IMG/VR virus record: IMGVR_UViG_3300045988_066757
Location: 1 to 11,589 of that record
From: a virus
Strand: one strand, 5' to 3'
Length of the DNA stretch: 11,589 nt
Shown: positions 1 through 11,589 of the stretch, one piece after another
Layout of the letters: each line of letters opens with the position of its first letter
Position numbering within the stretch: position 1 is the stretch's first letter
The notes under the pieces: generated by a model
The model's input: only the letters and a program-made list of their open reading frames with translations
Databases searched by the model: none
Told to the model about the DNA's origin: nothing
Made by a program: the position numbers and the translations under genes

Positions 1-62
1 AAATATGCATAGCGACCTCTTTTTTAACATTTCCCAACACAGATTTAACACTAGCCAACACA

Positions 63-199
63 CTTTGGCACGCTTTTTGGTAGGTGCAATGCCACTCGAA
101 AGGCACGGCAGAAAAAATCTCTCTCGCCAACTTTGGCACGCTATTTGCATACCTCAAATGTTTTTGAAACTCGCCTTATTTGGCACGCTTTTTGCATAA
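63..199 (+). promoter_or_regulatory. Three direct copies of TTTGGCACGCTnTTTG(C/G); sigma-54 -24/-12-like elements or origin iterons (left ITR)
   Basis: TGGCAC-N5-TTGG at 66-80. TGGCAC-N5-TTGCA at 134-149 and at 181-196. Copies 2 and 3 extend to a 29-nt unit CTCGCC-N3-TTTGGCACGCTnTTTGCATA (123-151 and 170-198, 25/29 identical). All copies point inward, toward the 97-aa gene. Confidence 0.5.
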
Positions 200-242
200 A
201 GAAAAAAGATTTTTTATTTTAAGATTTATTAGTACAAAAAAA

Positions 243-274
243 TTTGCTATCACTCGTAAAAGTGTCTATCTTTG
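243..274 (+). promoter_or_regulatory. Bacteroidota-type housekeeping promoter (-33 TTTG / -7 TAnnTTTG) for the ITR gene
   Basis: TTTG at 243-246, a 20-nt spacer, then TATCTTTG at 267-274. This lies about 40 nt upstream of the ATG at 314, followed by an A-rich leader with no Shine-Dalgarno sequence. Confidence 0.6.
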
Positions 275-313
275 CACTATCAAATTAAAACAACAATTTA
301 AACAACAAACAAA

Positions 314-607
314 ATGAAGAAATCTTTTTTACGCGAAACGTCAAGATTACTAGCACAAACAAATGATAATCTAAGTTACGCGATTTCAGAGTTACGTGGT
401 AATGATACGTCTTTGCTTAAAGATATTCACGAAACATTAGAAAACATCGATGTTCTACTGCGATGTGAAGCAGATGGACGTGAAGCCCTAGAAATCGCTC
501 ACAAAAAAGAAATGTGGTTAAAAAATCAAGCATATTTTTTCATTCTTGACAGCGGTAATCTAGACGCTTTTCGAGAATATATTAAAGAGAACCCGAAAGA
601 ATTTTAA
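314..607 (+). CDS. Hypothetical 97-aa protein encoded inside the ITR (left copy); predicted mostly helical, function unknown
   Basis: ATG-initiated ORF with its own promoter and a downstream terminator. An identical copy lies at 10983-11276 (-). I recognise no motif. Confidence 0.8.
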   Translation: MKKSFLRETSRLLAQTNDNLSYAISELRGNDTSLLKDIHETLENIDVLLRCEADGREALEIAHKKEMWLKNQAYFFILDSGNLDAFREYIKENPKEF

Positions 608-613
608 TAAAAT

Positions 614-650
614 AACCGAAACGTAAAATTTTACGCTTCGGTTTTATTTT
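614..650. terminator. Bidirectional rho-independent terminator between convergent genes
   Basis: Stem AACCGAAACGTA (614-625) pairs with TACGCTTCGGTT (632-643) with one mismatch. It is followed by TTTTATTTT on the plus strand and by a T-rich run on the minus strand. It sits between the stop of the 97-aa gene (607) and the stop of the amidase gene (649). Confidence 0.7.
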
Positions 651-1053
651 AATTCAGTGGTAACAAACAAATTTTATTGAATGCTTCAATATCTTTTGCC
701 TTAAAGTTTGGGCAACTTTTATATTTGTTATAAGTGCAATGCCTTGTAACTTTTTTAATATCATATTGAGATATTAAGAAGTTACACACGTGCGCCAAAG
801 ATTCAATAACTTTTGCGGTCGGTTCTCTGCCGATGTAGGCAATACCTATGCTATTAGCGTTATGTCCTTTGCAGTGAGCACCTATTTCTATAATATTGCG
901 CCCTTTGTACCACTTGCCGTTAATATCAACTAAGAAGTGGTAGCCTATATCTCGCCACTTATTTACATTTACGTGGCACTTTCGTATTGCTTGCACGGTC
1001 GTGTTTGTCGGTGTATCGGTGCAATGTAAAATAATTTCGTTTATTTTTCGCAT
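649..1053 (-). CDS. N-acetylmuramoyl-L-alanine amidase endolysin (Amidase_2 / T7 lysozyme / PGRP fold)
   Basis: Blocks IILHCTDT, IGYHFLVD, GAHCKGHNANSIGIAYIG and RHC...KSCPNF match the zinc-ligand and catalytic blocks of T7-lysozyme-type amidases (His, His, Cys). It is the last gene of the late module. Confidence 0.9.
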   Translation of the reverse strand: MRKINEIILHCTDTPTNTTVQAIRKCHVNVNKWRDIGYHFLVDINGKWYKGRNIIEIGAHCKGHNANSIGIAYIGREPTAKVIESLAHVCNFLISQYDIKKVTRHCTYNKYKSCPNFKAKDIEAFNKICLLPLN

Positions 1054-1064
1054 AGTTTTAAAAT

Positions 1065-2657
1065 TTAAATTACATAAACACCACTATTAAGCAAATTATA
1101 AATTTGTTTTTGTTCTTCCTCAAGCATATTATGGGTGCTAATAATATCTACTGCATCAACCGAAACAAAACCCTTCAAATCGCCTAATACGCTGCGTTTG
1201 CTTTCATTGTTTCTAATATCGGATTTGCTTACATAAGAAGTAGCGTATAAATAAGGCTCTATTCCGTATAATGCGAAATCGTTCCAACTATCGCTACCTA
1301 CCTGCCTAATATCTTGTGATAGAGTTCTGTATATAACGTCTAAAGACGGTGTTATCTGCTCTACTTGGAAGACACTTCCATCACACGATAATTTTGCAAC
1401 TCCTTTACCTGTTATTATATTCACAACGTATTGTAGGTTTATTTCCTTGCCAACATATTCTTCGCTTAAAGAAACAAAACCTTTGAACGGTAGGAATATT
1501 TTAAAGTCGCTGGCATAGTCGGTTATATCCTTGTTTGGTGCCGGTACGGTAATACTACCATAGTCAAGCGTTATATTTTCAACCCCCGGAGTTTTTACAT
1601 TTATACCAGTATTATAGTTCCCTAATGATAGGGTACTTTCGCCGCTTTCGGTTATATCCGTGTATATCCTTTTAATGCTGCTTACATATTCGCCTATATC
1701 GATTGCCGTTCCCGTGCTTTGTATAAATCTTTGTTTCGCTAATTTGTCTAACGCAGCATCATTTACTATATAGACATTGATAGACCCGTATTTACCACCA
1801 ACGGGCGGCGTTGTGTCAGGCTTTGCACTTCCTGTAAGGTAATAATTACCTGAATTAGGGTCATTCACACCCTCATTCATTAACCACGAAAATACAGCCT
1901 TTTTATTTCCGTCCTGTAATGTGCTTTCAACTTCGTAATTGTCAAATGAAGATTCAAACGTAATTTTAGGTTTGCTTTCATTGTCGAATATATATTCAGT
2001 ATTAGCCGTTAGTGATATTGTTACTGGTTCTTTATCCTTGTAACGCTCTTTCAAGTTTTCAACGATACAATTTTCCGTTTGATTTTTTATTTTATACGAA
2101 CGTTCATAAGTTCCCGTTAACGTGATAGGGTAATCAAAATCAGCGTCATTTATAGTTATTTTAGCGTAGTGAGGTTGTGTCCCACTTATAACCATATTTA
2201 CAGATTTATCTAAATTGCCCTTATCTTTATAAGTCGCTTTAGCGTCAAAAAACCAATAGCCCACATTATCACCCGTAACGGTAATCTCTACTTGACTATC
2301 ATTTATAGTGTGTGATTCTGTCGTATCGGCAATTTCATTGTTTACCGTAACTTTCGGTACGGGTGTTCCCTCCTCGCTTTCGCCGTTTATAACTATATCG
2401 GGATAATCTTCGGGTGATAATTCAAGCCACGAAGAAACAGCCGTGTTTCCGTCTTCTGAAATTGTTAAATTATCTGTTTTTTCGTCACCCCATGTATAGT
2501 CATTATATACTAACGTGGGTTGCGGTTCTTTCTTTATAACCGTTCCTGTATTTGCTTTTACGGTAAATTGGTATTTACTTAAAAAACTACCCCCTTTCTT
2601 TTCTTCAAAAGTTACGGTTGTGTTAGGAATGTTATTTGTAAATTTAAAGTTTGCCAT
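1065..2657 (-). CDS. Tail structural protein, 530 aa; putative tail knob / receptor-binding protein
   Basis: Large beta-rich ORF downstream of the capsid gene. The start overlaps the upstream stop (TAATG at 2655-2659). The N-terminal half contains an internal duplication (DGNTAVSSWLEL versus DGNKKAVFSWLMN with similar flanks). The C-terminal half (FLPFKGFVSLSEEYVGKEINLQY ... FVSVDAVDII...EEQKQIYNLLNSGVYVI) reminds me of the C-terminal parts of phi29 gp9-type tail knob proteins; this is from memory and unverified. Confidence 0.8.
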   Translation of the reverse strand: MANFKFTNNIPNTTVTFEEKKGGSFLSKYQFTVKANTGTVIKKEPQPTLVYNDYTWGDEKTDNLTISEDGNTAVSSWLELSPEDYPDIVINGESEEGTPVPKVTVNNEIADTTESHTINDSQVEITVTGDNVGYWFFDAKATYKDKGNLDKSVNMVISGTQPHYAKITINDADFDYPITLTGTYERSYKIKNQTENCIVENLKERYKDKEPVTISLTANTEYIFDNESKPKITFESSFDNYEVESTLQDGNKKAVFSWLMNEGVNDPNSGNYYLTGSAKPDTTPPVGGKYGSINVYIVNDAALDKLAKQRFIQSTGTAIDIGEYVSSIKRIYTDITESGESTLSLGNYNTGINVKTPGVENITLDYGSITVPAPNKDITDYASDFKIFLPFKGFVSLSEEYVGKEINLQYVVNIITGKGVAKLSCDGSVFQVEQITPSLDVIYRTLSQDIRQVGSDSWNDFALYGIEPYLYATSYVSKSDIRNNESKRSVLGDLKGFVSVDAVDIISTHNMLEEEQKQIYNLLNSGVYVI

Positions 2658-3142
2658 TACTTATTACCTTTTATAGTTATCATTATCATTGTGCCTGTAT
2701 CATTCAATAGACCCATATTCGGAAACGGTACTTTTTCAAAGTGCGGCGTTCTTGAATATATGCTTTGCCTTGTGGATATGTATTTATCGGGGTCGTCAGA
2801 CAACACAACATGTCCCGTGGTCCTCAATATATCAGTTTCATACGTTTTTAGCACGTCCACAGATAGAAAAATTTCATAAGTAGAATTCCCTATAAATTTA
2901 ACGCTATCCACGAAATAAAAGCGTTGTAAACTATCTATTTTGCAGTAGTTGAATGTTGGTGCTGCTTGTAGTCTGACAAGCAAAACGGGGTGTAAAACGT
3001 CAAATGTTTTCCATAAAGTACAATCTAAATCAGTTGGCGAAGAAAGATTTTTATTTATTACTTTAGAATCTCCGTTATAGTTGTAAAAATGTATTGTTTC
3101 CATATCTGTATAAAATTTAAAGGGTAGGTAGTTATTAACCAC
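2657..3142 (-). CDS. Tail structural protein, 161 aa or shorter; possible tail-knob N-terminal-domain homolog
   Basis: ORF directly after the capsid gene and translationally coupled to the 530-aa gene. The segment RFYFVDSVKFIGNSTYEIFLSVDVLKTYETDI resembles the N-terminal signature of gp9-type tail knob proteins as I remember it. The listed start at 3142 is GTG and lies inside a hairpin. The first ATG is at 3103 (METIHF...), so the start is uncertain. Confidence 0.7.
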   Translation of the reverse strand: MVNNYLPFKFYTDMETIHFYNYNGDSKVINKNLSSPTDLDCTLWKTFDVLHPVLLVRLQAAPTFNYCKIDSLQRFYFVDSVKFIGNSTYEIFLSVDVLKTYETDILRTTGHVVLSDDPDKYISTRQSIYSRTPHFEKVPFPNMGLLNDTGTMIMITIKGNK

Positions 3143-3148
3143 CTACCC
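3122..3148 (-). terminator. Candidate attenuator/terminator hairpin after the capsid gene
   Basis: GGGTAGGT (3122-3129) pairs with ACCTACCC (3141-3148) around an 11-nt loop. In minus-strand sense it is followed by TTTAAATTTTAT. It lies 33 nt downstream of the capsid stop and overlaps the GTG at 3142. Confidence 0.3.
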
Positions 3149-3180
3149 ATTCACAAAACAACAATTTTAATAACCCAAAT

Positions 3181-4353
3181 TTAGGCTACAAAGAACACAA
3201 CAAAGTTTTCGTTGGTGTCGTTAAAATAACCTGCGTCAAACTTATAGTAATTATTGAAAAACTCTGCTTTTGCATTGTAGTTCGTTGTTACTCTTCGGTC
3301 GATGTTGCACACCCCGAGAGCGTCGCGGTCAAACATCACACCAAGAACGCCACTAATATCTACGTTTTGCCCGCTCGTCTCCTTGATGTTAATGTGTGCC
3401 GTACTTGCGAACTCGTAGTTTTTACCGCTACCTTGCCAAAACGGAATTGTTTCTGCATTCGGCAAGAGTACTTGGTCTTTGTTGTAGCTATCCGCGTATA
3501 GGTAAGTTCTTGCGGCTTTCTCGAAGTCAGACAAAAGAACAACGTGCAAATTGTCTTTAGGTGTGAAACGTGGCTTACCTCCTACGTTAAACGCACTTGA
3601 AATTGACGCCAAACGGTCGCTATACAAACCGATTGTATATGAAGCGAATTTAATGAAATCGGGGTCGGTTAGTGCTTTGTCAGCGGTAATAGTTGCGCCC
3701 TTTTGGTCGTTGTACAACTTTAGTAGGTTCACACAACGAGCGGTAGACCCTTTAGTATAATCCGTACCCTTGGCACCAGCAAAAGCGGCAGAATCTGCAA
3801 TGAGAGTTTCAGCAATCATGTTGTTGATGGTTCGCATAATTAACGCGTCTGTCTTAATTGTGATAGACTTTTCTACCGCATTATAAATCATTGAGTAGAA
3901 AGCGTTAAGTTGTTCAGAGTTACTGAAAGATTCTTTCACCTGTCGTTCTGTAATAGAAACGGCTACTTCAAAAGTAACTTTTGAATTAAAGAATTTTGCA
4001 GTAACAACGGGCTTATGGAATACATCCTGCGAATATGTTTGCCCGTCTGTCAATTCCCAACTTTTGTTTTCTTCGGCTTCGGGAATATCGGCATTTATCT
4101 TTTCGAGAACGCTGCCGAACTCCCAACTATCCATGAGAACGGAAGGAATTTTACCACTATAAGGGCGGTTAACAAATACCACTTTGCCGATGTGGTTAAC
4201 CAAAGATTTAACGTAATTGTCTACCGCATTTTGGTTAAACACTTCTTTACCCAAATCGACCAAACCAGTTAAATCTTCGGTTACAAGGTCTGTGTTACCT
4301 AGAACTTCTTTAGTTACGCTGTTAAGTAGTTCGTAAATTTGATTTACTTGCAT
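3181..4353 (-). CDS. Major capsid protein (HK97-fold type, phi29 gp8-like core without an Ig-like C-terminal domain)
   Basis: A 390-aa ORF in the canonical portal - scaffold - capsid position with its own strong promoter. Blocks such as DNYVKSLVNHIGKVVFVNR and QLNAFYSMIYNAVEKSI are reminiscent of podoviral capsid proteins (from memory). Confidence 0.75.
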   Translation of the reverse strand: MQVNQIYELLNSVTKEVLGNTDLVTEDLTGLVDLGKEVFNQNAVDNYVKSLVNHIGKVVFVNRPYSGKIPSVLMDSWEFGSVLEKINADIPEAEENKSWELTDGQTYSQDVFHKPVVTAKFFNSKVTFEVAVSITERQVKESFSNSEQLNAFYSMIYNAVEKSITIKTDALIMRTINNMIAETLIADSAAFAGAKGTDYTKGSTARCVNLLKLYNDQKGATITADKALTDPDFIKFASYTIGLYSDRLASISSAFNVGGKPRFTPKDNLHVVLLSDFEKAARTYLYADSYNKDQVLLPNAETIPFWQGSGKNYEFASTAHINIKETSGQNVDISGVLGVMFDRDALGVCNIDRRVTTNYNAKAEFFNNYYKFDAGYFNDTNENFVVFFVA

Positions 4354-4364
4354 AATATAATATT

Positions 4365-4934
4365 TTAGTAAATTGATTTTGTTATCTCATTTATAATTGC
4401 AAAGATAATATTTTCGCGCCAGTTTTTCAAACTAAATTGAATTTCTTTTTGTAGTTCGTCCGTGGCTGATTTTCCATTTAACCCCGTCACTACTTCGGTT
4501 ACTTCGGTTTTGTTCGTTCGCGTTTTGTCGCTTGTGTTATTGTCTTTGTCGTATTCCTCAAAAGTCGTAGTATTAAACGGCTTATTTGATGATACGTTTG
4601 TGTTAATGTTGTTCTCGCTCTCTGTAGCGTTATTTGTTTTTGTAGTGGTTTTATTCGTAGGTTTTAGCACGTTATACGTGGTATTGTACGCATCAGCCAC
4701 TTTTACCCAATTCGGGAGCATTAAGGCAATAACATTTTTAGCGTAGTTGTTTGCGTTTTCGCTTGTTATGGTGTTTAATACTTCTTTTTCTCCGTATTTC
4801 AAAAGTACTAAAGTATCAAGCCCTACACTATCCAATTCACCGAAAATTTTTGTGTATTGGTCGGGGTAATTCGCTTTGAATACCTTTGTAAATAACCCGT
4901 TTTGTGGGTCGGGGTATAACTCAATTATTTTCAT
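4365..4934 (-). CDS. Hypothetical 189-aa protein in the scaffold / head-tail adaptor position
   Basis: ATG ORF between the portal and capsid genes that overlaps the portal stop by 14 nt. It has a central N/T/K-rich low-complexity linker and helical ends. The function is inferred from position only. Confidence 0.75.
   Translation of the reverse strand: MKIIELYPDPQNGLFTKVFKANYPDQYTKIFGELDSVGLDTLVLLKYGEKEVLNTITSENANNYAKNVIALMLPNWVKVADAYNTTYNVLKPTNKTTTKTNNATESENNINTNVSSNKPFNTTTFEEYDKDNNTSDKTRTNKTEVTEVVTGLNGKSATDELQKEIQFSLKNWRENIIFAIINEITKSIY
4400..4431 (-). promoter_or_regulatory. Bacteroidota-type promoter for the capsid gene, embedded in the 3' end of the upstream gene
   Basis: Minus-strand sense: TTTG (4431-4428), a 20-nt spacer, TATCTTTG (4407-4400), then about 45 nt to the capsid ATG at 4353. 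The octamer and spacing are the same as in the ITR promoter. Confidence 0.6.
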
Positions 4935-5958
4935 TTTCTTTTCTTTTTTCTTCGTTCTTTTCTTCGTCTGTTTCTGTTTCTGTTTCTGTTTCCGTTTCTG
5001 TTTCTGTTTCTGTTTCTGTTTCCGTTTCTGTTTCCGTTTCTGTTTCCGTTTCGGTGTCGTTTACTTCTTTTTCTTGTTCACTAGCATTTTGTTCGTTTTC
5101 TGTTTCTGTTTCGTTTTTACGTATTGCCCAACTGCTACCCAATTCAACGCTAATTTCAGTACCAAACATTTCGTTTATTTTGTCTACTGCCTTTTTACGT
5201 TCTTGTAGCATATTATCTACGTATGGGTTCAAAGCGTCTACGTTCATTTGCACCTCGGATGTGTTAAGCCGTTCGCGCTTTAAATTGTAGTTTGCATTTA
5301 AGCCTATTTCATTAAACGCGCTAGCTTTGAAATACTGCAAAAGTTCTATTAACTGCCCTATTTGGTTTGCGCTTTGTGTGTTAATGCTTTGCAGATTTAC
5401 ACCCTTAAAAAATGCGTTTTCGCCAATTACGGAGAAATCCCCGTTTAAAATACGCGTTATAAATTCGTCCGCGCTTTGCTTTGTTTTATCATCGCTCGCA
5501 CTGATTAGCATTGTAATACGAGAGAGCACCGAGCACGTATTTAACGATAAAAGCGTATCAGAGCACAAAACCCCATATTTGCCGAAAATCGGTAAAAGAC
5601 TATTTGCGCCACTATCATTTTTTATAAGAATGCCATCTATACCTATTTTGTAGGTTTTATTTAAATTTAAATAGGGATTCGCCACTACGTATTCGGTTGG
5701 GTTGTTGTACACATCAGGAGTGCCACCCAAACCGCCCGTAAAAGCATACATTTTGCCGTCTACCTCTGTTACAAAAACGTTGCCGTTTGTCTGTAAAAGT
5801 CTTTCAAGTTCGTTTTGTGGCAAAGTATCGGGCAAACCTTTGTACACAAACATTGCTTGAGTTATAGCCAACATTTTGCGAATGTAGCTATTTACGCTTT
5901 TATCTTTGCCTTTTATTTCTTCTTGATATTTTAGGTAATAATTATCCTTCTTTGCCAT
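4921..5958 (-). CDS. Head-tail connector / portal protein (phi29 gp10 upper-collar type) with a long acidic repeat tail
   Basis: A 345-aa ORF. Blocks LPDTLPQNELERLL, GGTPDVYNNPTEYVVANP, NYNLKRERLNTSEV and RKKAVDKINEMFG line up with my memory of gp10-type connectors. It is located upstream of the scaffold-position and capsid genes. The C-terminal ~70 aa are acidic low complexity. Confidence 0.8.
   Translation of the reverse strand: MAKKDNYYLKYQEEIKGKDKSVNSYIRKMLAITQAMFVYKGLPDTLPQNELERLLQTNGNVFVTEVDGKMYAFTGGLGGTPDVYNNPTEYVVANPYLNLNKTYKIGIDGILIKNDSGANSLLPIFGKYGVLCSDTLLSLNTCSVLSRITMLISASDDKTKQSADEFITRILNGDFSVIGENAFFKGVNLQSINTQSANQIGQLIELLQYFKASAFNEIGLNANYNLKRERLNTSEVQMNVDALNPYVDNMLQERKKAVDKINEMFGTEISVELGSSWAIRKNETETENEQNASEQEKEVNDTETETETETETETETETETETETETETETDEEKNEEKRKENENN
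4969..5055. repeat. Hexanucleotide tandem repeat (YGTTTC)x14.5 encoding (TE)14T in the portal C-terminus
   Basis: Fourteen and a half consecutive TGTTTC/CGTTTC units on the plus strand. They are in frame on the minus strand as alternating Thr (ACA/ACG) and Glu (GAA). A shorter ETETE stretch is encoded at about 5098-5115. Confidence 0.95.
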
Positions 5959-6145
5959 AGATGTTTTTTATTAAATTTGTTAACTCTGAAAGTACCTTTG
6001 TATTTTCTTCTAAGGTACCCCGTAAATGTTCCGTTTCTTCTGCGTGCTTTGTGTCTTGCTTTGCCATGTAATAGAAAACAAGTAAACACATACCAATTGG
6101 AAAACCTACGTTTGAAATAAGTTGGGTTAATTCTGTAATATCCAT
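5942..6145 (-). CDS. Small single-pass membrane protein, YvrJ-like; possible holin
   Basis: MDITELTQLISNVGFPIGMCLLVFYYMAKQD followed by a charged helical tail. The NxGFPI motif plus a hydrophobic helix resembles the YvrJ family (from memory). The track starts the ORF at a GTG (6172), but the predicted -7 box ends at 6175, so the ATG at 6145 is the more likely start. It overlaps the portal start by 17 nt. Confidence 0.6.
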   Translation of the reverse strand: MDITELTQLISNVGFPIGMCLLVFYYMAKQDTKHAEETEHLRGTLEENTKVLSELTNLIKNIYGKEG

Positions 6146-6174
6146 ATTTGGAAATTTAAAAGTTAATAACACTA

Positions 6175-6206
6175 CAAAGATAACGTATTTATTTCACACT
6201 CACAAT
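6175..6206 (-). promoter_or_regulatory. Bacteroidota-type promoter upstream of the small membrane protein and portal genes
   Basis: Minus-strand sense: ATTG (6206-6203), a 20-nt spacer, then TATCTTTG (6182-6175). The -7 octamer and spacing match the ITR and capsid promoters; the -33 box is one mismatch from TTTG. Confidence 0.5.
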
Positions 6207-7301
6207 GTTAGAACGTGCTGAAGTCATTAAATAATTTCGTACAATTTCCCCAACTTCGTTATTTTGATAAAATACCTTGTCAGTGGCGAAATATCTTGTT
6301 ACTTGTGACTCAATGTAAGTAGCTGTACTTATTAGTTTTCGCTTGTAGTTCGGTTTTCCGTTCATTTCTAGCGAATATATTAAAGCGTTATCGTCTTTTA
6401 TTGGTGTGGTTTTGATGTGGATGTATGTAAAATTTTCGTTTCCTTTTTGTATGATGTTTCCTTGTAAAATTACTTCGTTAAACACAATGTAATAGACAAA
6501 TAAAACATCTTTAGGGGTGTATTTTGTTGGCAAATGTGGATAGGCAGCCAATTCCCATTTACCGCCCGTAATCATCTGTAAATTTTGATTATCGAAACAG
6601 AAATATTTATTACTTGCTTTCTGCTTTACAATCGTACTACAATATTCGACCGCTACCACCGCGCCACCTTGACCGAACTTGTAAATGTCTATCGTTCCTT
6701 GCTCCATGTTGGTTACTTGCTTTAGACCCATTTCGGAAAAGTAGGGGCAATATTTATTTATAGTATTACCGAGCATAAACACCTTTACATTATCCCTTTG
6801 TCGTATTATGGTGCTAAGTAAGTTCATAAATAACATAAATTCATCGGGTAAATAGTACCTACGTGTGAGAAATTCGTCAAAGATTATTGTAGTAACATTC
6901 GGATAACTGCTACTTTTTTCGTGCTCTTGTTCTGACAGACAAAAACCATAACAAAACGGGGTAGTTTGTGGGTAATACTTTTTCTTTTCTGAATCGTACT
7001 TAGCAAGATACCATTTTCCCGAAATGTAAAAGATTGTGTTAAATTCTCCGTTCGTTAACTTTGTTATTTCATCATTCGCAACATGATTTGCAAAAAGGTT
7101 TTCGGCTCTCTTACCGCGTAAATCTTCGCGCCACCTACGGATATATGCCATTTGTTCACCCGTTGAGACATACCTCTTTAAACCATACAAAAGGGCTGCA
7201 TAGGTTTTGCCGTTGGAACGCTCTCCAAATATAATATTATAGTCTGCTTTTTTATTTAGTATCTTTGTGAGCGAATAAAATTTATTTTTTTCTTGTTTCA
7301 T
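6189..7301 (-). CDS. DNA encapsidation (packaging) ATPase, phi29 gp16 type
   Basis: Walker A is FGERSNGKTYA and the Walker B-like block is YPNVTTIIFDEF. Blocks GEQMAYIRRWREDL and RDNVKVFMLGNTINKYCPYF follow the order I remember for gp16-family ATPases. There is no separate small terminase. Confidence 0.9.
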   Translation of the reverse strand: MKQEKNKFYSLTKILNKKADYNIIFGERSNGKTYAALLYGLKRYVSTGEQMAYIRRWREDLRGKRAENLFANHVANDEITKLTNGEFNTIFYISGKWYLAKYDSEKKKYYPQTTPFCYGFCLSEQEHEKSSSYPNVTTIIFDEFLTRRYYLPDEFMLFMNLLSTIIRQRDNVKVFMLGNTINKYCPYFSEMGLKQVTNMEQGTIDIYKFGQGGAVVAVEYCSTIVKQKASNKYFCFDNQNLQMITGGKWELAAYPHLPTKYTPKDVLFVYYIVFNEVILQGNIIQKGNENFTYIHIKTTPIKDDNALIYSLEMNGKPNYKRKLISTATYIESQVTRYFATDKVFYQNNEVGEIVRNYLMTSARSNIVSVK

Positions 7302-7305
7302 TTCT

Positions 7306-7339
7306 GTTTTGTTTTAAGTGTTCCACGTGGAACGGGTTA
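7306..7339 (-). promoter_or_regulatory. Conserved upstream element, copy 1, containing the perfect palindrome GTTCCACGTGGAAC (7320-7333)
   Basis: Minus-strand sense: TAACCCGTTCCACG-TG-GAACACTTAAAACAAAAC, ending 4 nt before the ATPase ATG. It shares two identical 14-nt blocks with 10943-10977. Confidence 0.5.
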
Positions 7340-7341
7340 AT

Positions 7342-9528
7342 TTAATCTTTTAATTTTATACCTCTCAAATAGTTTAAATACATAATACTTAGTGATAGGT
7401 TGTAATTCGTTGGCTCGAGATGAACACCGCTATTTTCAACAAAGTTACTTTTATTTCCTAAATAGTCGGTAATTACTCCTTGTATTTTATAATCTATGTA
7501 TGTGTGTATGTTTTTGCCCGTGGCTTCGTTTGGAATTTCTAGGTAATTAGTGAAAGCGTTAAAAATGTCGTCCCCGTACTTTTTAACTAGGTAGGGAATG
7601 GCGGTTTTTTTATTTACCCCACTAATTGTAAGGCTATATTTATAACTTTGCCCGTCTACCTTTAGTGCGTTTTCTTCTTCTACCATGTAGCGTTTTGCTC
7701 CCAATGTTTTAAAGTGTGTGTAAACACCCTCAAAATCCCACACACCGAGCACCTTTGTAACTCCTTTAATAGTTTCGGGTTCGCACTTTTCAAAAGAAAT
7801 ATTGTGATATTTACATGCTGCTTTCAATTTGTTATATACTACATTGTTGTATGTGTCAAAATACTTTTTGTGCTTATCAGCGTTTTTTAGTTTTATGCTA
7901 TCCGTATCGCTGTAAATGTAATCATCTTTCGCTTCATAAATAGCGGTGAATAAATTTCTCCTAGCGTAAGCCGTAACGAAAACCCCCCACGGATAGAACA
8001 AAAATCGGTTTTTGCTATCATTGTATTTTTGTAACATTTCCGCTTTTTCTCTATCGGTTAACGTGTTAGTATCCCATTTGCCGTTATATGTAAATTCGTC
8101 ACGGAGTGGGTTTGTAACACACATTCCATAGCAAGAATTAAGCATTTCTTTACTATTCAAATATTCTACTTCTTTCCCTTGCACGCCCTTTAATTTGGTT
8201 TTGCTTTCGTATAGGTCTAGAATGGTATTTATAAATTCGGTGGGCAAATAATCTGCTTTGTAAATGTACATTGTGCCAATTCTGATTTTACCCCACTTGT
8301 AGAACATTTTTATAACGTTGTAATCTATATTTGTTAAGGTGGTGCAAATCTTTTCAGCACACACCACACGCCCGTTGTTTTCTACTACTTCTTTTTTCAA
8401 AAAGCACTTACTTACGCTTATTGGATTATCTTGCAATTCACTTGCAAAAATATCGGTAAATTCTACGTCAAAAATGCAAAGGTAGTTTTTTATATAGTAC
8501 TCAAATTCTCGCATATTTCGGGGGTTTACTTTTACGCCCTTACTCATTGGGAATTTTTCAGATATCATAACATATGGGTAGCTGCTTGTAAAATCGTAGC
8601 TAGATATGTTTGTACAAATTTTGTCCACGTGGTTTGCATTCGCATGTGTGAACCCACCACTAAAAGCACGTTGCAACATGTTAAATTCATGTAGCCCGTT
8701 TATGTTTAGAGAGTGAATTAAATTTATACATTCCCAATTACGAATACTTTTGCCGTTTATATTCTTTTGGAGCATATTTTTACGGCAATGTTTACGTACA
8801 AAACCCGTTTTAGTGAGTGGTAGCCGTGTAATGAATTTGTATTGTTCTAGTTGTTCCTGTATGTAGTTCATAACCACGCGAATATCGTTCACACAGTACA
8901 TCAATTCTTTTGTGCTTAGTGGTGTTTTTGAGTGTCTTAAAAGTGTGTAGTCTAAATCTCCAACTAATTTAGCGCACTTGTACTTCTGTAGTTGTTCCCC
9001 CAATTTGGCAAGGTTGTAACCGCTTAACAAGTAACTACAACGAAACTCTATACCGTCTTTTGTTATTGCGTAAATGGGTTTTCTTAAATCAATACTAAAA
9101 ACTTTTTCCCACTCAAACAAAGTGCGTATAAATTGAAATTCGTATGATAAATTGTGAATGTAAATTATTATTCTTTTATCTTTATTTAGGCTTAATTTGC
9201 GGACTATTACAGAGCACATTTTTATAAACTCATCCCACGTACGACCTACAATTATATACCCGTTTATTCCGAATTGCCACACGTACATAGTACTACACTT
9301 TTCCAATTTTGTACCTAGTTTTGCGTATTGTTCGTAGTTGTACGTGCTGCCATCCTTACCACGATAAAAAGATGTTGTTTCAATATCGAATGCGCATGGG
9401 ATGTTATAGAATTTAGTTCCCTTGTTATTGCCTATTACATTTTTATCATTTACAGCATTATCTAGTACTTCTTCTATGTCTGTAGAATTGTAAATATTAT
9501 TTCGTTGTTCATATTGAATTTTTTTCAT
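7342..9528 (-). CDS. Protein-primed family-B DNA polymerase
   Basis: ExoI is AFDIETTS, ExoII is IHNLSYEFQF and ExoIII is YCVNDIRV. Motif A is SYDFTSSYP (Dx2SLYP), motif B is KEMLNSCYG (Kx3NSxYG), motif C is YSDTDS, and the KxY motif is GAKRY. At 728 aa there is room for TPR1/TPR2-type insertions. Confidence 0.95.
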   Translation of the reverse strand: MKKIQYEQRNNIYNSTDIEEVLDNAVNDKNVIGNNKGTKFYNIPCAFDIETTSFYRGKDGSTYNYEQYAKLGTKLEKCSTMYVWQFGINGYIIVGRTWDEFIKMCSVIVRKLSLNKDKRIIIYIHNLSYEFQFIRTLFEWEKVFSIDLRKPIYAITKDGIEFRCSYLLSGYNLAKLGEQLQKYKCAKLVGDLDYTLLRHSKTPLSTKELMYCVNDIRVVMNYIQEQLEQYKFITRLPLTKTGFVRKHCRKNMLQKNINGKSIRNWECINLIHSLNINGLHEFNMLQRAFSGGFTHANANHVDKICTNISSYDFTSSYPYVMISEKFPMSKGVKVNPRNMREFEYYIKNYLCIFDVEFTDIFASELQDNPISVSKCFLKKEVVENNGRVVCAEKICTTLTNIDYNVIKMFYKWGKIRIGTMYIYKADYLPTEFINTILDLYESKTKLKGVQGKEVEYLNSKEMLNSCYGMCVTNPLRDEFTYNGKWDTNTLTDREKAEMLQKYNDSKNRFLFYPWGVFVTAYARRNLFTAIYEAKDDYIYSDTDSIKLKNADKHKKYFDTYNNVVYNKLKAACKYHNISFEKCEPETIKGVTKVLGVWDFEGVYTHFKTLGAKRYMVEEENALKVDGQSYKYSLTISGVNKKTAIPYLVKKYGDDIFNAFTNYLEIPNEATGKNIHTYIDYKIQGVITDYLGNKSNFVENSGVHLEPTNYNLSLSIMYLNYLRGIKLKD

Positions 9529-10172
9529 AAGCCGAATTTACCTAACGCACTTAGTAGGTCATTTACTAGTCCTTTTATTTCGTTTTCTGCTTTGTTAACT
9601 GTTTCGTTAGCCTTGTTTTCTATATCCCGTTGTAACGCGTTTTCAAGGCTTACCGCATCGCTTTCTATTTGGCTACTAACATCTGCCGCTTCGCTCTCTA
9701 ATTCACCGGTAAAATCTTTGTAGCGCATTAAATACTTTTCTACAAAATCGCTATCGGAAATACTTTGCAACTTGTCGTTAATCTTATCCGACATCAAATT
9801 AAATTCTTCGTCGGTAAGCTCGTACGCTCTTTTTATATGTTCATTATATTGCAGAGTGCCTCTAGCAGTGCTTGTTGGTTGCCTTAAAAAGGCTATTGCT
9901 TTCGCGTATTCACGTTTTAATTCTTCCCAAGATAATTCACCTACTGCAAACTTACTGAATCCATCTATATTGCCTCTATTTAATGCCTTAACCGCGGGGC
10001 TTAAAAGTCCTGCGCTTTCTATGTTTTCTATTCGTCTGTTTGCTTGATGAAAAACCCTCCTTATTTCTTTACGTAGTTCGGGGTTACTTTCAGTGGCTGA
10101 AATAATTTCTTTTTTTAGTTTTTCCCTTTCTGTGGATGAGAAAACAGATTTAGTGAATGCAATTTTTGGCAT
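9525..10172 (-). CDS. Candidate terminal protein (priming protein), 215 aa
   Basis: Lies immediately upstream of the protein-primed polymerase and overlaps it (ATGA at 9525-9528), as TP genes do in phi29-like phages. It has a basic helical N-terminal part and a Ser/Asp/Glu-rich C-terminal part. The function is inferred from position and composition only. Confidence 0.75.
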   Translation of the reverse strand: MPKIAFTKSVFSSTEREKLKKEIISATESNPELRKEIRRVFHQANRRIENIESAGLLSPAVKALNRGNIDGFSKFAVGELSWEELKREYAKAIAFLRQPTSTARGTLQYNEHIKRAYELTDEEFNLMSDKINDKLQSISDSDFVEKYLMRYKDFTGELESEAADVSSQIESDAVSLENALQRDIENKANETVNKAENEIKGLVNDLLSALGKFGL

Positions 10173-10178
10173 AGTATT

Positions 10179-10210
10179 AAAATTAAAAGGGAGGGAGAAA
10201 ACCCCCTCCC
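10179..10210 (-). terminator. Rho-independent terminator (minus strand) after the 117-aa gene
   Basis: Minus-strand sense: GGGAGGG (10210-10204), loop GGTTTTCT, CCCTCCC (10195-10189), then TTTTAATTTT. The GC-only stem stands out in an AT-rich genome, and there is no T-run on the plus strand. Confidence 0.7.
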
Positions 10211-10218
10211 GATGTTAT

Positions 10219-10572
10219 TTACTTATCTTTGAAAGTGATTGTGTAACAATCTTTACCGTGGCTCTCGTACTTTCGTACGATAAAACCTACTTTAGACATA
10301 CGGATAGCTTCTACGGCTTCCGCGTCTTTTACAATGTCGTTAAATACCTTTGTAAGGTTTAAAGGCATGTCTACGCGCTTTTTAAAGGACTTCATTACAA
10401 CTACCACCTTAACGCCAAATTTACCGCGCGTAAAGTAAAAGCCATCTAAAGAATGTACCTTATTTCCGTCTTGGTTGTACAACTCTTTAAGAGTGGTAAA
10501 GGTGTATCCGTCAAAATTGAAAATGAATGGGTTCTCGTTTCCCGGGTTGTACTTTTGTGAAAAACTTGTCAT
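10219..10572 (-). CDS. Hypothetical 117-aa early protein; candidate single-stranded DNA-binding protein
   Basis: ATG ORF in the replication module, upstream of the TP and polymerase genes and followed by a strong terminator. Its beta-rich pattern and size are reminiscent of phi29 p5-type SSBs (weak, from memory). Confidence 0.8.
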   Translation of the reverse strand: MTSFSQKYNPGNENPFIFNFDGYTFTTLKELYNQDGNKVHSLDGFYFTRGKFGVKVVVVMKSFKKRVDMPLNLTKVFNDIVKDAEAVEAIRMSKVGFIVRKYESHGKDCYTITFKDK

Positions 10573-10583
10573 AACTTAAATTT

Positions 10584-10757
10584 TTATTTAATATTGGTGA
10601 TGTGTTCATTACCTAGTGAAATAAGGTAATTTCTAAACTTAGAGATTTTAAGAAGTGTGCGAGTATTCGCACTTACTTCGGGGGTAGTCATAAGTTGACC
10701 GAGTGACGCGCAAGCGGTAAAAATTGCGTCATCAAATTGGTTTTGTTCGTTGTTCAT
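10584..10757 (-). CDS. Small hypothetical protein, 57 aa (absent from the supplied ORF track)
   Basis: Hand translation: MNNEQNQFDDAIFTACASLGQLMTTPEVSANTRTLLKISKFRNYLISLGNEHITNIK, stop TAA at 10584-10586. Its ATG overlaps the TGA of the upstream 61-aa gene (ATGA at 10754-10757). It fills an otherwise empty 180-nt gap in a tightly packed genome. Confidence 0.5.
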   Translation of the reverse strand: MNNEQNQFDDAIFTACASLGQLMTTPEVSANTRTLLKISKFRNYLISLGNEHITNIK

Positions 10758-10939
10758 TTCTTAGGGTATTTGAATAAATTAGTGTGTTTAATAAAAGTGG
10801 TGTCTGTTGTTACTATGGTCGCTTTGCCGTTTATTTCTGTATCGTGATACATCTTGCACGAAGTTACACAAAACAAAGCACACAAAAGACAAAAGTACAA
10901 AATAGTACCTGCTAAGCACTTTAAAAATGTTTTTTTCAT
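10754..10939 (-). CDS. Small predicted lipoprotein / secreted membrane-anchored peptide, 61 aa
   Basis: N-terminus MKKTFLKCLAGTILYFCLLCALFCVTSC has a basic start, a hydrophobic core and a Ser-Cys lipobox-like end. The mature part would be about 33 aa. It is the first gene after the right ITR. Confidence 0.7.
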   Translation of the reverse strand: MKKTFLKCLAGTILYFCLLCALFCVTSCKMYHDTEINGKATIVTTDTTFIKHTNLFKYPKK

Positions 10940-10942
10940 TAC

Positions 10943-10977
10943 GTTTTGTTTTAAGTATTCAAACGTGGAACGGGTTA
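10943..10977 (-). promoter_or_regulatory. Conserved upstream element, copy 2, straddling the inner ITR boundary
   Basis: Minus-strand sense: TAACCCGTTCCACG-TTT-GAATACTTAAAACAAAAC, ending 3 nt before the ATG at 10939. The 14-nt blocks GTTTTGTTTTAAGT and CGTGGAACGGGTTA (plus strand) are identical to those in copy 1. Confidence 0.5.
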
Positions 10978-10982
10978 TTTTA

Positions 10983-11276
10983 TTAAAATTCTTTCGGGTT
11001 CTCTTTAATATATTCTCGAAAAGCGTCTAGATTACCGCTGTCAAGAATGAAAAAATATGCTTGATTTTTTAACCACATTTCTTTTTTGTGAGCGATTTCT
11101 AGGGCTTCACGTCCATCTGCTTCACATCGCAGTAGAACATCGATGTTTTCTAATGTTTCGTGAATATCTTTAAGCAAAGACGTATCATTACCACGTAACT
11201 CTGAAATCGCGTAACTTAGATTATCATTTGTTTGTGCTAGTAATCTTGACGTTTCGCGTAAAAAAGATTTCTTCAT
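10983..11276 (-). CDS. Hypothetical 97-aa protein encoded inside the ITR (right copy)
   Basis: Identical translation to 314-607 (+). Unlike the left copy, no terminator follows it before the downstream genes. Confidence 0.8.
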   Translation of the reverse strand: MKKSFLRETSRLLAQTNDNLSYAISELRGNDTSLLKDIHETLENIDVLLRCEADGREALEIAHKKEMWLKNQAYFFILDSGNLDAFREYIKENPKEF

Positions 11277-11315
11277 TTTGTTTGTTGTTTAAATTGTTGT
11301 TTTAATTTGATAGTG

Positions 11316-11347
11316 CAAAGATAGACACTTTTACGAGTGATAGCAAA
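11316..11347 (-). promoter_or_regulatory. Bacteroidota-type promoter (right ITR copy); likely the main rightmost promoter of the minus-strand gene array
   Basis: Mirror image of 243-274 (TTTG, 20 nt, TATCTTTG). Confidence 0.6.
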
Positions 11348-11390
11348 TTTTTTTGTACTAATAAATCTTAAAATAAAAAATCTTTTTTCT

Positions 11391-11527
11391 TTATGCAAAA
11401 AGCGTGCCAAATAAGGCGAGTTTCAAAAACATTTGAGGTATGCAAATAGCGTGCCAAAGTTGGCGAGAGAGATTTTTTCTGCCGTGCCTTTCGAGTGGCA
11501 TTGCACCTACCAAAAAGCGTGCCAAAG
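11391..11527 (-). promoter_or_regulatory. Three sigma-54 -24/-12-like / iteron motif copies (right ITR)
   Basis: Mirror image of 63-199. The individual elements lie at 11510-11524, 11441-11456 and 11394-11409, all pointing inward (leftward). Confidence 0.5.
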
Positions 11528-11589
11528 TGTGTTGGCTAGTGTTAAATCTGTGTTGGGAAATGTTAAAAAAGAGGTCGCTATGCATATTT

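Follow-up and report, generated by a model that had tools for sequence, protein, structure and literature searches.

Sigma-54-like boxes in the inverted terminal repeats of a phi29-like podovirus genome: candidate inward promoters next to a conserved terminal module

We analyzed an 11,589-bp stretch of viral DNA (IMG/VR record IMGVR_UViG_3300045988_066757, positions 1 to 11,589; here called the window), which is the complete linear genome of a phi29-like podovirus replicating by protein priming. Each of its inverted terminal repeats (ITRs) carries three boxes that resemble TGGCAC-N5-TTGC, the −24/−12 core of promoters recognized by the alternative sigma factor sigma-54 (RpoN). We place at about even odds (probability near 0.5) the reading that boxes 2 and 3 are inward-facing sigma-54-type promoters and that box 1 is a sigma-54-like element belonging to a conserved terminal module, probably the origin.

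Sigma-54-like boxes in the terminal repeats and the same motif elsewhere

A preliminary description of this DNA had placed TGGCAC-N5-TTGCA at 134-149 and 181-196 and TGGCAC-N5-TTGG at 66-80, with all three repeated in the other ITR. Inspection of the sequence and a pattern search confirmed these coordinates, and the second set consists of mirror copies within a perfect 617-nt repeat that bounds the window and whose arms are 100% complementary:

1-617, plus strand: left ITR (repeat scan); position 1 is the physical end
10973-11589, minus strand: right ITR (repeat scan)
66-80, plus strand: box 1, TGGCACGCTTTTTGG; perfect −24 element, non-consensus −12 element (GG for GC), one mismatch (pattern search)
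134-149, plus strand: box 2, TGGCACGCTATTTGCA (core TGGCACGCTATTTGC at 134-148, then A), within the 20-mer TTTGGCACGCTATTTGCATA at 131-150; predicted start near nt 160
181-196, plus strand: box 3, TGGCACGCTTTTTGCA (core TGGCACGCTTTTTGC at 181-195, then A), within TTTGGCACGCTTTTTGCATA at 178-197; predicted start near nt 207
11510-11524, minus strand: right copy of box 1 (pattern search)
11441-11456, minus strand (core 11442-11456): right copy of box 2; predicted start near 11430, toward a 97-aa open reading frame (ORF) and a long co-oriented operon
11394-11409, minus strand (core 11395-11409): right copy of box 3; predicted start near 11383

The boxes exceed chance expectation, as had been claimed. 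TGGCAC-N5-TTGC with at most one mismatch occurred six times in the window (0.49 expected), and none of 200 shuffles reached six; for the exact 10-nt pattern, about 0.02 occurrences would be expected in 2 × 11.6 kb. These six sites are not independent, as the ITR duplication leaves three. The GG and GC doublets, 10 nt apart, are exact in boxes 2 and 3, which also lie, as described earlier, within a 29-nt direct repeat (123-151 and 170-198; 86% identical). Box-to-box spacings are 68 and 47 nt, the latter also found in three relatives (L001, L002, and L003). All boxes point toward the 97-aa ORF and, at the right end, the whole operon comes after it. A 64-aa ORF spanning the boxes (5-199) was rejected as a gene given its lack of a family match and the indels and unalignable sequence at this place in relatives.

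We searched 185,579 genomes, one per species, for the 20-mer TTTGGCACGCTnTTTGCATA (19 fixed bases). It was recovered from 96 bacterial genome stretches, compared to approximately 4 expected for 19 fixed bases. An ORF started within 300 nt at 77 of 97 sites, most commonly at a distance of 36 to 50 nt. Pfam assigned the downstream genes to P-II, PspA, a flagellar rod protein, and Ptb (phosphate butyryltransferase), all known sigma-54 regulon members. In Prevotella/Xylanibacter, Bacteroidaceae, and Paludibacteraceae, the downstream genes encode HSP90/HtpG, GrpE, ClpB, HSP20, and an FtsX-type permease. Chaperone genes are under sigma-54 control in Bacteroidota (PMC12316311), and mapped start sites in Flavobacterium carry the −24/−12 motif (PMC9723704). 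Because TTTGGCACGCTnTTTGCATA precedes regulon genes, boxes 2 and 3 match the sigma-54 promoters of the likely host group at every fixed base: the Bacteroidota htpG, grpE, clpB, and hsp20 promoters have the same TGGCACG-N4-TTGCA core and flanks, with the 20-mer exact.

The sequence after the boxes also resembles that of promoters. In the 16 nt that follow each box (about −11 to +5), GC content is 50% for box 1, 25% for box 2, and 12% for box 3. The same segment has 29% GC at the bacterial sites and 28% in the large-phage promoters described below, such that the AT-rich segments after boxes 2 and 3, a feature they have in common with bacterial sigma-54 promoters, support the promoter reading.

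An inverted GTGCCA partner was present at only 4 of 93 bacterial sites, and we therefore rejected it as a general trait of sigma-54 promoters. In several Prevotellaceae (Prevotella/Xylanibacter; L099, L108, L125, L143, and L155), the htpG box starts 1 to 2 nt past the T-run of the upstream gene's terminator, so that hardly any intergenic space remains for an enhancer site close by. Activation of this heat shock regulon may proceed from within the neighboring gene or without a specific site.

The 20-mer TTTGGCACGCTnTTTGCATA also matched large IMG/VR contigs (14 to 361 kb) that are unrelated to the podovirus and have no sequence similarity to it beyond the motif. These contigs (L057-L069 and L241-L246) include 3300028888_000074, 3300031992_000009, and 3300028833_000001, and the motif is carried by 3300032030_000285, 3300028888_003249, and 3300028591_000072 as well. 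We counted 46 unique sites of the form TTGGCAC(G)nTnnTTG(C/T)ATATAG, nearly all located 34 to 78 nt upstream of a co-oriented, ATG-initiated ORF. The motif thus precedes dozens of small genes. Hardly any of these fall into a known family; one codes for a protein of the sigma-70 family. Sites selected by TTGGCA and TTG alone had C as the next base in 43 cases, T in 12, and A in 2. The podovirus boxes and the large-phage motif also agree in their flanks (an upstream TT, a T as the second spacer base, and TTGCATA), so that both share the extended form TTGGCAC(G)nTnnTTG(C/T)ATA together with the C/T degeneracy at −12. Since the extended 22-mer was limited to approximately 10 contigs, it marks one phage lineage rather than a general feature of viral contigs. 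Leaders in this lineage lack Shine-Dalgarno sequences, and the large phages had no match among deposited phage genomes. No sigma-54 or activator gene was found among 63 ORFs in a small part of the large-phage contigs, which returned one Sigma70_r2 match and two unrelated families. Judged by its sequence and placement, the large-phage motif is a predicted sigma-54-type promoter class across those genome segments.

An inverted AGCGTGCCA precedes TGGCACGCT by 13 to 16 nt in 9 of the 48 large-phage promoters (for example, in L062 at approximately 2120-2180, 5010-5066, 6390-6445, and 12720-12775, with equivalents in L066 and L069). In these hairpins, which were read by eye because their loops exceed the limit of the terminator scanner, the −24 element is the 3′ arm and the T-rich spacer is the T-run. 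They look like terminators overlapping the next promoter, an overlap seen occasionally in both phage groups.

Conservation across relatives and the terminal module

A polymerase search returned 53 relatives of the window, and a profile search returned at least 574 in IMG/VR. We examined 125 genomes, which fall into three clades with polymerases 65 to 87% identical and provide 64 unique ends with a recognizable terminus. Strict or relaxed boxes lie within approximately 300 nt of the ends and face inward in these genomes, the exceptions being the palindromic partner of box 1 and intragenic sites in clade 3; in the original 54-genome subset, the only reverse-oriented matches were the box 1 partner. 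Positions measured from the end were as follows:

Box 1: starts at nt 65-66; in all 64 unique ends; −12 base C 47, T 16, G 1
Box 2: starts at nt 123-139; in 40 ends; −12 base C 22, T 18
Box 3: starts at nt 171-190; in 18 ends; −12 base C 5, T 13

Box copy number ranges from 1 to 4 across the family, boxes 2 and 3 vary in position and sometimes lie outside the ITR, and the sequence between boxes cannot be aligned across clades, indicating that the boxes themselves are what is retained. Conservation of the TGGCAC/TTGC positions in homologous ITRs, which the preliminary description had made a test of its promoter reading, was found in part: TGGCACG, the T-rich spacer, and TTG are 94 to 100% conserved across the family, but of 124 boxes only 74 have the final C, with T replacing it in 47, G in 1, and A in 1. 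Clade 1b has a short ITR of approximately 101 nt that always includes box 1; box 2 is present at both ends although it lies outside the ITR, amid unrelated flanks. ITR length is highly variable across the family (L001-L237), from approximately 101 nt to 1,050 nt (L197).

Box-like sites inside genes were restricted to clade 3 (L167-L237), and none were found in the clade of the window. A conserved TGGCAAGGAACTTGC lies on the plus strand approximately 260 nt upstream of the polymerase gene, at about nt 1,420-2,520 (mostly 1,500-1,740). An antisense strict box was detected in 13 clade 3 genomes (TGGCACGAAATTTGC in 12 and TGGCACGTAATTTGC in 1), on the minus strand and, in most of the 13 carriers, approximately 5.3 to 6.3 kb from the right end.

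Box 1 has a setting of its own. Four YYAACAY repeats precede it at 24-30, 34-40, 45-51, and 55-61 (TTAACAT, CCAACAC, TTAACAC, and CCAACAC; mirror copies at 11529-11566), spaced 10, 11, and 10 nt apart, and their helical phase continues into box 1. The terminal block with these repeats and box 1 is gapless and conserved in all three clades, as are TTTAAC.TTTCCCAAC and TTTAACA within it; TTTCCCAAC is at nt 30 in 45 of 45 ends. The GCCAA..TTGGC arms noted earlier at boxes 1 and 2 do exist (54-58/65-69 and 126-130/133-137) but are not conserved, as relatives have GCTAA or GTTAA, and GCCAAC is the fourth member of the phased YYAACAY repeat. Clades 2 and 3 have further TTTAACAC copies after box 1. 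Going by their phasing and conservation, the strongest candidates for origin iterons are the YYAACAY repeats rather than the sigma-54-like boxes, and the repeats likely bind the terminal replication complex. Box 1 looks like a part of this terminal module.

These observations bear on the main rival explanation, which the preliminary description had offered beside the promoter reading: that the boxes are iterons of a terminal origin or nucleoprotein complex, bound by a phage protein or by a host protein other than sigma-54, with the likeness to sigma-54 promoters incidental. The invariant distance of box 1 from the end, the gapless block, and the phase with the repeats at 24, 34, 45, and 55 all favor it, as does the constant presence of box 1 in the minimal clade 1b ITR. 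The near-invariance of the spacer (G[CG]T[TA]TT) in a family so lax at the −12 C points the same way, as do the GC-rich segments after window box 1 and after the boxes of clades 2 and 3, and the retention of boxes at right ends that have no inward gene. However, a chance likeness to TGGCACG-N4-TTG together with both promoter flanks is very unlikely, and in unrelated phages this motif takes the place of a promoter close to genes. In addition, Astrithrvirus (discussed below) has homologous polymerase and packaging genes but no such boxes. Spacing also speaks for independent promoters rather than a cooperative iteron array, since the intervals in the window (68 and 47 nt) and in clade 3 (58 and 48 nt) are unphased and the copy number and the positions of boxes 2 and 3 vary. 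The iteron idea therefore suits box 1, with its fixed distance of 65 to 66 nt, phasing with YYAACAY, and GC-rich downstream segment, but not boxes 2 and 3, and as an account of all the boxes we regard it as unlikely.

Hairpins provide a further explanation, in which the boxes are arms of intrinsic terminators, or of cruciform or single-strand structures formed during strand-displacement replication, and not protein sites. In clade 1b, the right-end box 2 is indeed the 5′ arm of the 15-bp terminator stem of the long operon: in L012 (11129-11162) and the matching right ends of L005-L013, AAATAGCGTGCCAAA and TTTGGTACGCTATTT form a stem followed by a T-run, and the 5′ arm is the reverse complement of the inward box. 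Clade 1b box 1 has a CGTGCCAAA partner downstream, and the large-phage promoters with an upstream inverted GTGCCA form a hairpin and then enter the T-rich spacer. In the window, by contrast, neither RNA structure (88-313; z = −0.79) nor single-stranded DNA structure (z = +0.54) was significant in the box region, where the terminator scan detected a single hairpin, the 5-bp GCCAA/TTGGC stem. Boxes 2 and 3 have no inverted partner in the window, that of box 1 is degenerate there and missing in several relatives, and most large-phage and bacterial sites lack one. We consider a purely structural role for the boxes very improbable.

A model for transcription from the repeats and its difficulties

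The promoter reading treats the ITR as an expression cassette that would comprise, from the end inward, the conserved block of approximately 60 nt with its YYAACAY repeats, the three co-oriented boxes, a primary-sigma promoter, and the gene for the 97-aa protein, closed at the left end by a terminator across the ITR boundary. The remaining elements are as follows:

243-274, plus strand: Bacteroidota-type primary-sigma promoter upstream of the ITR gene; −33 TTTG (243-246), 20 nt, −7 TATCTTTG (267-274)
11316-11347, minus strand: right copy of the primary-sigma promoter (pattern scan)
314-607, plus strand: 97-aa ORF, present in both ITR copies; the sole gene downstream of the left-end boxes
10983-11276, minus strand: 97-aa ORF, right copy; opens the minus-strand gene array that spans the genome
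609-648, strandless: palindromic, probably bidirectional terminator between the 97-aa ORF (plus) and the amidase gene (minus), spanning the left ITR boundary at nt 617

The consensus for the primary-sigma promoter is that of PMC9723704, and relatives have a like arrangement of this promoter before the first early gene. The terminator scan called a 13-bp stem at 643-614 (minus strand) within the 609-648 palindrome. The 97-aa ORF had no Pfam or PHROG match, and a query of its protein against public assemblies returned only a 617-bp contig identical to the ITR.

The sequence, conservation, position, and orientation of the boxes are read directly from the genomes; sigma-54 binding, dependence on an activator, start sites, and timing are predictions from them. 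Host RNA polymerase with sigma-54 would bind boxes 2 and 3 and their mirror copies as a closed complex, which a host enhancer-binding ATPase would open; the likeliest candidate is the driver of the Bacteroidales sigma-54 heat shock regulon, responding to the stress of infection. Transcripts would run inward from approximately 12 nt past the GC doublet (left end, near nt 160 and 207; right end, near 11430 and 11383) and would supplement the output of the primary-sigma promoter. From the right end, transcription would traverse the 97-aa gene and continue along the co-oriented array that spans the genome; from the left end, it would reach the 97-aa gene only. With a non-consensus −12 element, GC-rich sequence downstream, and a fixed distance from the end, box 1 is probably either a weak promoter bound by the same factor or an element of the terminal (origin) module.

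Several observations weigh against boxes 2 and 3 as promoters. No enhancer-binding protein, Sigma54_activat domain, or other AAA+ activator domain was found among the window ORFs, nor did we find an upstream activator site common to the ITR and the Bacteroidales hsp promoters. A complete primary-sigma promoter intervenes between the boxes and the 97-aa gene, so the boxes are not needed to explain its expression. Leaders from boxes 2 and 3 would be approximately 107 to 155 nt long, compared to the 36 to 50 nt typical of bacterial sites. Across the family, the −12 base is C in only 74 of 124 boxes, the spacer is nearly invariant beyond what sigma-54 recognition needs, and the segment after the box is 49 to 50% GC in clades 2 and 3. 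Finally, the right-end boxes of clade 1b aim into the 3′ end of a convergent operon without an inward gene, and box 2 there doubles as the arm of that operon's terminator.

Some of these points are partly answered. In bacterial sigma-54 promoters the −12 C is present at 96% of sites, and non-consensus bases there are linked to raised activator-independent basal transcription (PMC4551910). Such basal transcription could suit a phage without an activator, and the gene-proximal promoters of the large phages share the C/T variation; together, these points offer a partial answer to the −12 degeneracy. An activator supplied by the host could likewise make up for the one that the phage lacks. Thus, for boxes 2 and 3, the sigma-54 reading of the preliminary description gained support from the bacterial matches, the AT-rich segments, co-orientation, and the large phages, but the phage encodes no activator for it.

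The lack of an activator gives some weight to a third explanation, in which the boxes do bind sigma-54 or its holoenzyme but serve mainly something other than transcription, either as a multicopy decoy titrating sigma-54 from the host stress regulon while the genome is replicated or by holding a stable closed complex that works as an auxiliary origin factor, in the manner of NFI and Oct-1 in adenovirus. All the evidence for authentic sigma-54 sites applies equally here, the 97-aa gene is already served by its primary-sigma promoter, and box 1 keeps its distance from the end. The sigma-54 holoenzyme is known to occupy promoters in an inactive, closed state, and at some sites it acts as a repressor (PMC4551910). 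However, this explanation is purely inferential, a mere binding site would have no need of the AT-rich melting regions or the promoter-like flanks that boxes 2 and 3 possess, and the large-phage motif is placed like a working promoter. We rank it after the iteron reading and judge it rather improbable.

A mixed arrangement has a parallel in another protein-primed linear genome. The adenovirus ITR contains an auxiliary origin in which the host factors NFI and Oct-1 bind at a fixed short distance from the terminus. The counterpart in the window would be box 1 at nt 66, with a sigma factor or its holoenzyme as the bound protein and a hypothetical role in replication; boxes 2 and 3, in contrast, vary in position. 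A sigma-54 holoenzyme held as a closed complex on box 1, in phase with the YYAACAY array, could act as such an auxiliary origin factor while boxes 2 and 3 fire, and family members with TTGT at −12 might manage this without an enhancer-binding activator; to this combination we likewise assign a low probability.

The genome, its relatives, and the meaning of the boxes

Pfam matches in the window (DNA_pol_B_2, Podovirus_Gp16, Phage_connector, and Phi29_MCP) are those of a phi29-like gene set, on a linear genome with ITRs. The minus-strand genes encode a type B protein-primed polymerase, a gp16-type packaging ATPase, a phi29-type connector, a major capsid protein, an amidase, and a holin. No profile identified a terminal protein among the window proteins, and no phi29-type packaging RNA or other noncoding RNA was detected in the ITR (no Rfam hit at E ≤ 1). 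In six relatives (L004, L018, L019, L038, L042, and L168), the contig ends show leftover Illumina adapter (...GTGTGCTCTTCCGATCT) immediately adjoining AAATATGCA or AAAGGTAC, indicating that position 1 of the window is a physical genome end. The AAA at the terminus is consistent with protein-primed initiation by sliding back. A separate, collapsed 617-bp ITR contig is present in ENA assembly ERZ27272201.

The host is probably a member of the Bacteroidota, judging by promoter type and the lack of Shine-Dalgarno sequences. The pattern TTTG-N17-23-TAnnTTTG had 8 matches in the window (1.3 expected), a Shine-Dalgarno core was found in 0 of 15 genes, and a similar fecal phi29-like genome of 11 to 14 kb has been assigned to Bacteroidales in a review (PMC11476376). 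Bacteroidota possess sigma-54 (PMC9723704, PMC12316311).

Other features of the genome were also observed. The window ITR is expanded to hold a whole gene with its promoters, giving the left end an inward gene, unlike in clade 1b. Within the minus-strand array, strong terminator-like hairpins follow the 117-aa ORF (10189-10210, minus strand) and the capsid gene (3122-3148, minus strand), which suggests that they attenuate read-through between early, replication, and structural blocks. The connector has an acidic (Thr-Glu)n tail at its C-terminus (...ETETETETETETETETETETETETDEEK...), encoded by a tandem 6-nt and 12-nt GTTTCT/GTTTCC repeat at 4929-5066. The polymerase and ATPase genes are separated by sequence that contains a perfect palindrome, GTTCCACGTGGAAC (7320-7333), with a half-site, AAACGTGGAACGGGTTA, upstream of a 61-aa ORF (10959-10971; repeat D3, 7293-7344 and 10931-10982). 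Clades 2 and 3 have two to three copies of TGTTTCACGTGGAACA between the boxes and the early promoter (seen in the ITRs of L014-L053 and L167-L237). These three sequences form a candidate operator for a phage regulator.

Neither the whole genome (megablast) nor its first 700 nt (blastn) matched any of 50,697 deposited phage genomes, among which relatives were detected only by protein-level search. The closest cultivated relatives are Astrithrvirus (Salmonella phage Astrid/astrithr, Acinetobacter phage Phanie, and Pectobacterium phage DU_PP_III), with genomes of 11 to 12 kb, the same gene order, and polymerases 42 to 46% identical to that of the window. Their ITRs are 83 to 219 bp long and, as in the window, inward-facing promoters stand at the ends. 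Inward promoters beside the termini are thus an architecture common to both groups. However, Astrithrvirus has gammaproteobacterial hosts, unrelated terminal sequences, and sigma-70-type TTGACA/TATAAT promoters, and no sigma-54-like box was found in the ITRs of Astrid, Phanie, or DU_PP_III. Because these phages share the replication genes but not the boxes, the boxes are probably not a general requirement of the replication machinery.

Phage phi29 is also small and protein-primed, with early promoters (C2, A1, and A2) close to its termini (PMC11476376) and the same core genes as the window (type B DNA polymerase, gp16 ATPase, connector, and phi29-type capsid protein). Its promoters are of the primary-sigma type and are regulated by p4 and p6, in contrast to the sigma-54-type class of the window, and it has 6-bp ITRs and a packaging RNA in place of a 617-bp ITR. 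Among bacteria, the Flavobacterium remFG-sprCDBF operon likewise has tandem sigma-54-type and primary-sigma promoters (PMC9723704). The window boxes differ from bacterial sigma-54 promoters in lying within the ITRs of a lytic phage, three in tandem and with longer leaders, in a genome that carries neither an activator gene nor a recognizable upstream activator site; the family also differs in its invariant spacer and in a −12 C conservation of about 64%, compared to 96% in bacteria.

A sigma-54 promoter normally stays silent unless a dedicated ATPase activator opens it, and a lytic phage that lacks an activator would not be expected to choose this class. Full-text literature searches pairing sigma-54 or RpoN with phages turned up no lytic phage described as dependent on it. 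The boxes suggest that this phage uses an activator-dependent transcription system of its host. If so, a very abundant family of 11- to 12-kb gut phages, and a lineage of large phages besides, would be tied to the Bacteroidales sigma-54 stress regulon, and phage development would be coupled to the host heat shock response. The frequent C-to-T variants at −12 would then be natural test cases for activator-independent sigma-54 initiation, and the boxes would serve as a marker by which these uncultivated phages could be linked to hosts that possess sigma-54.

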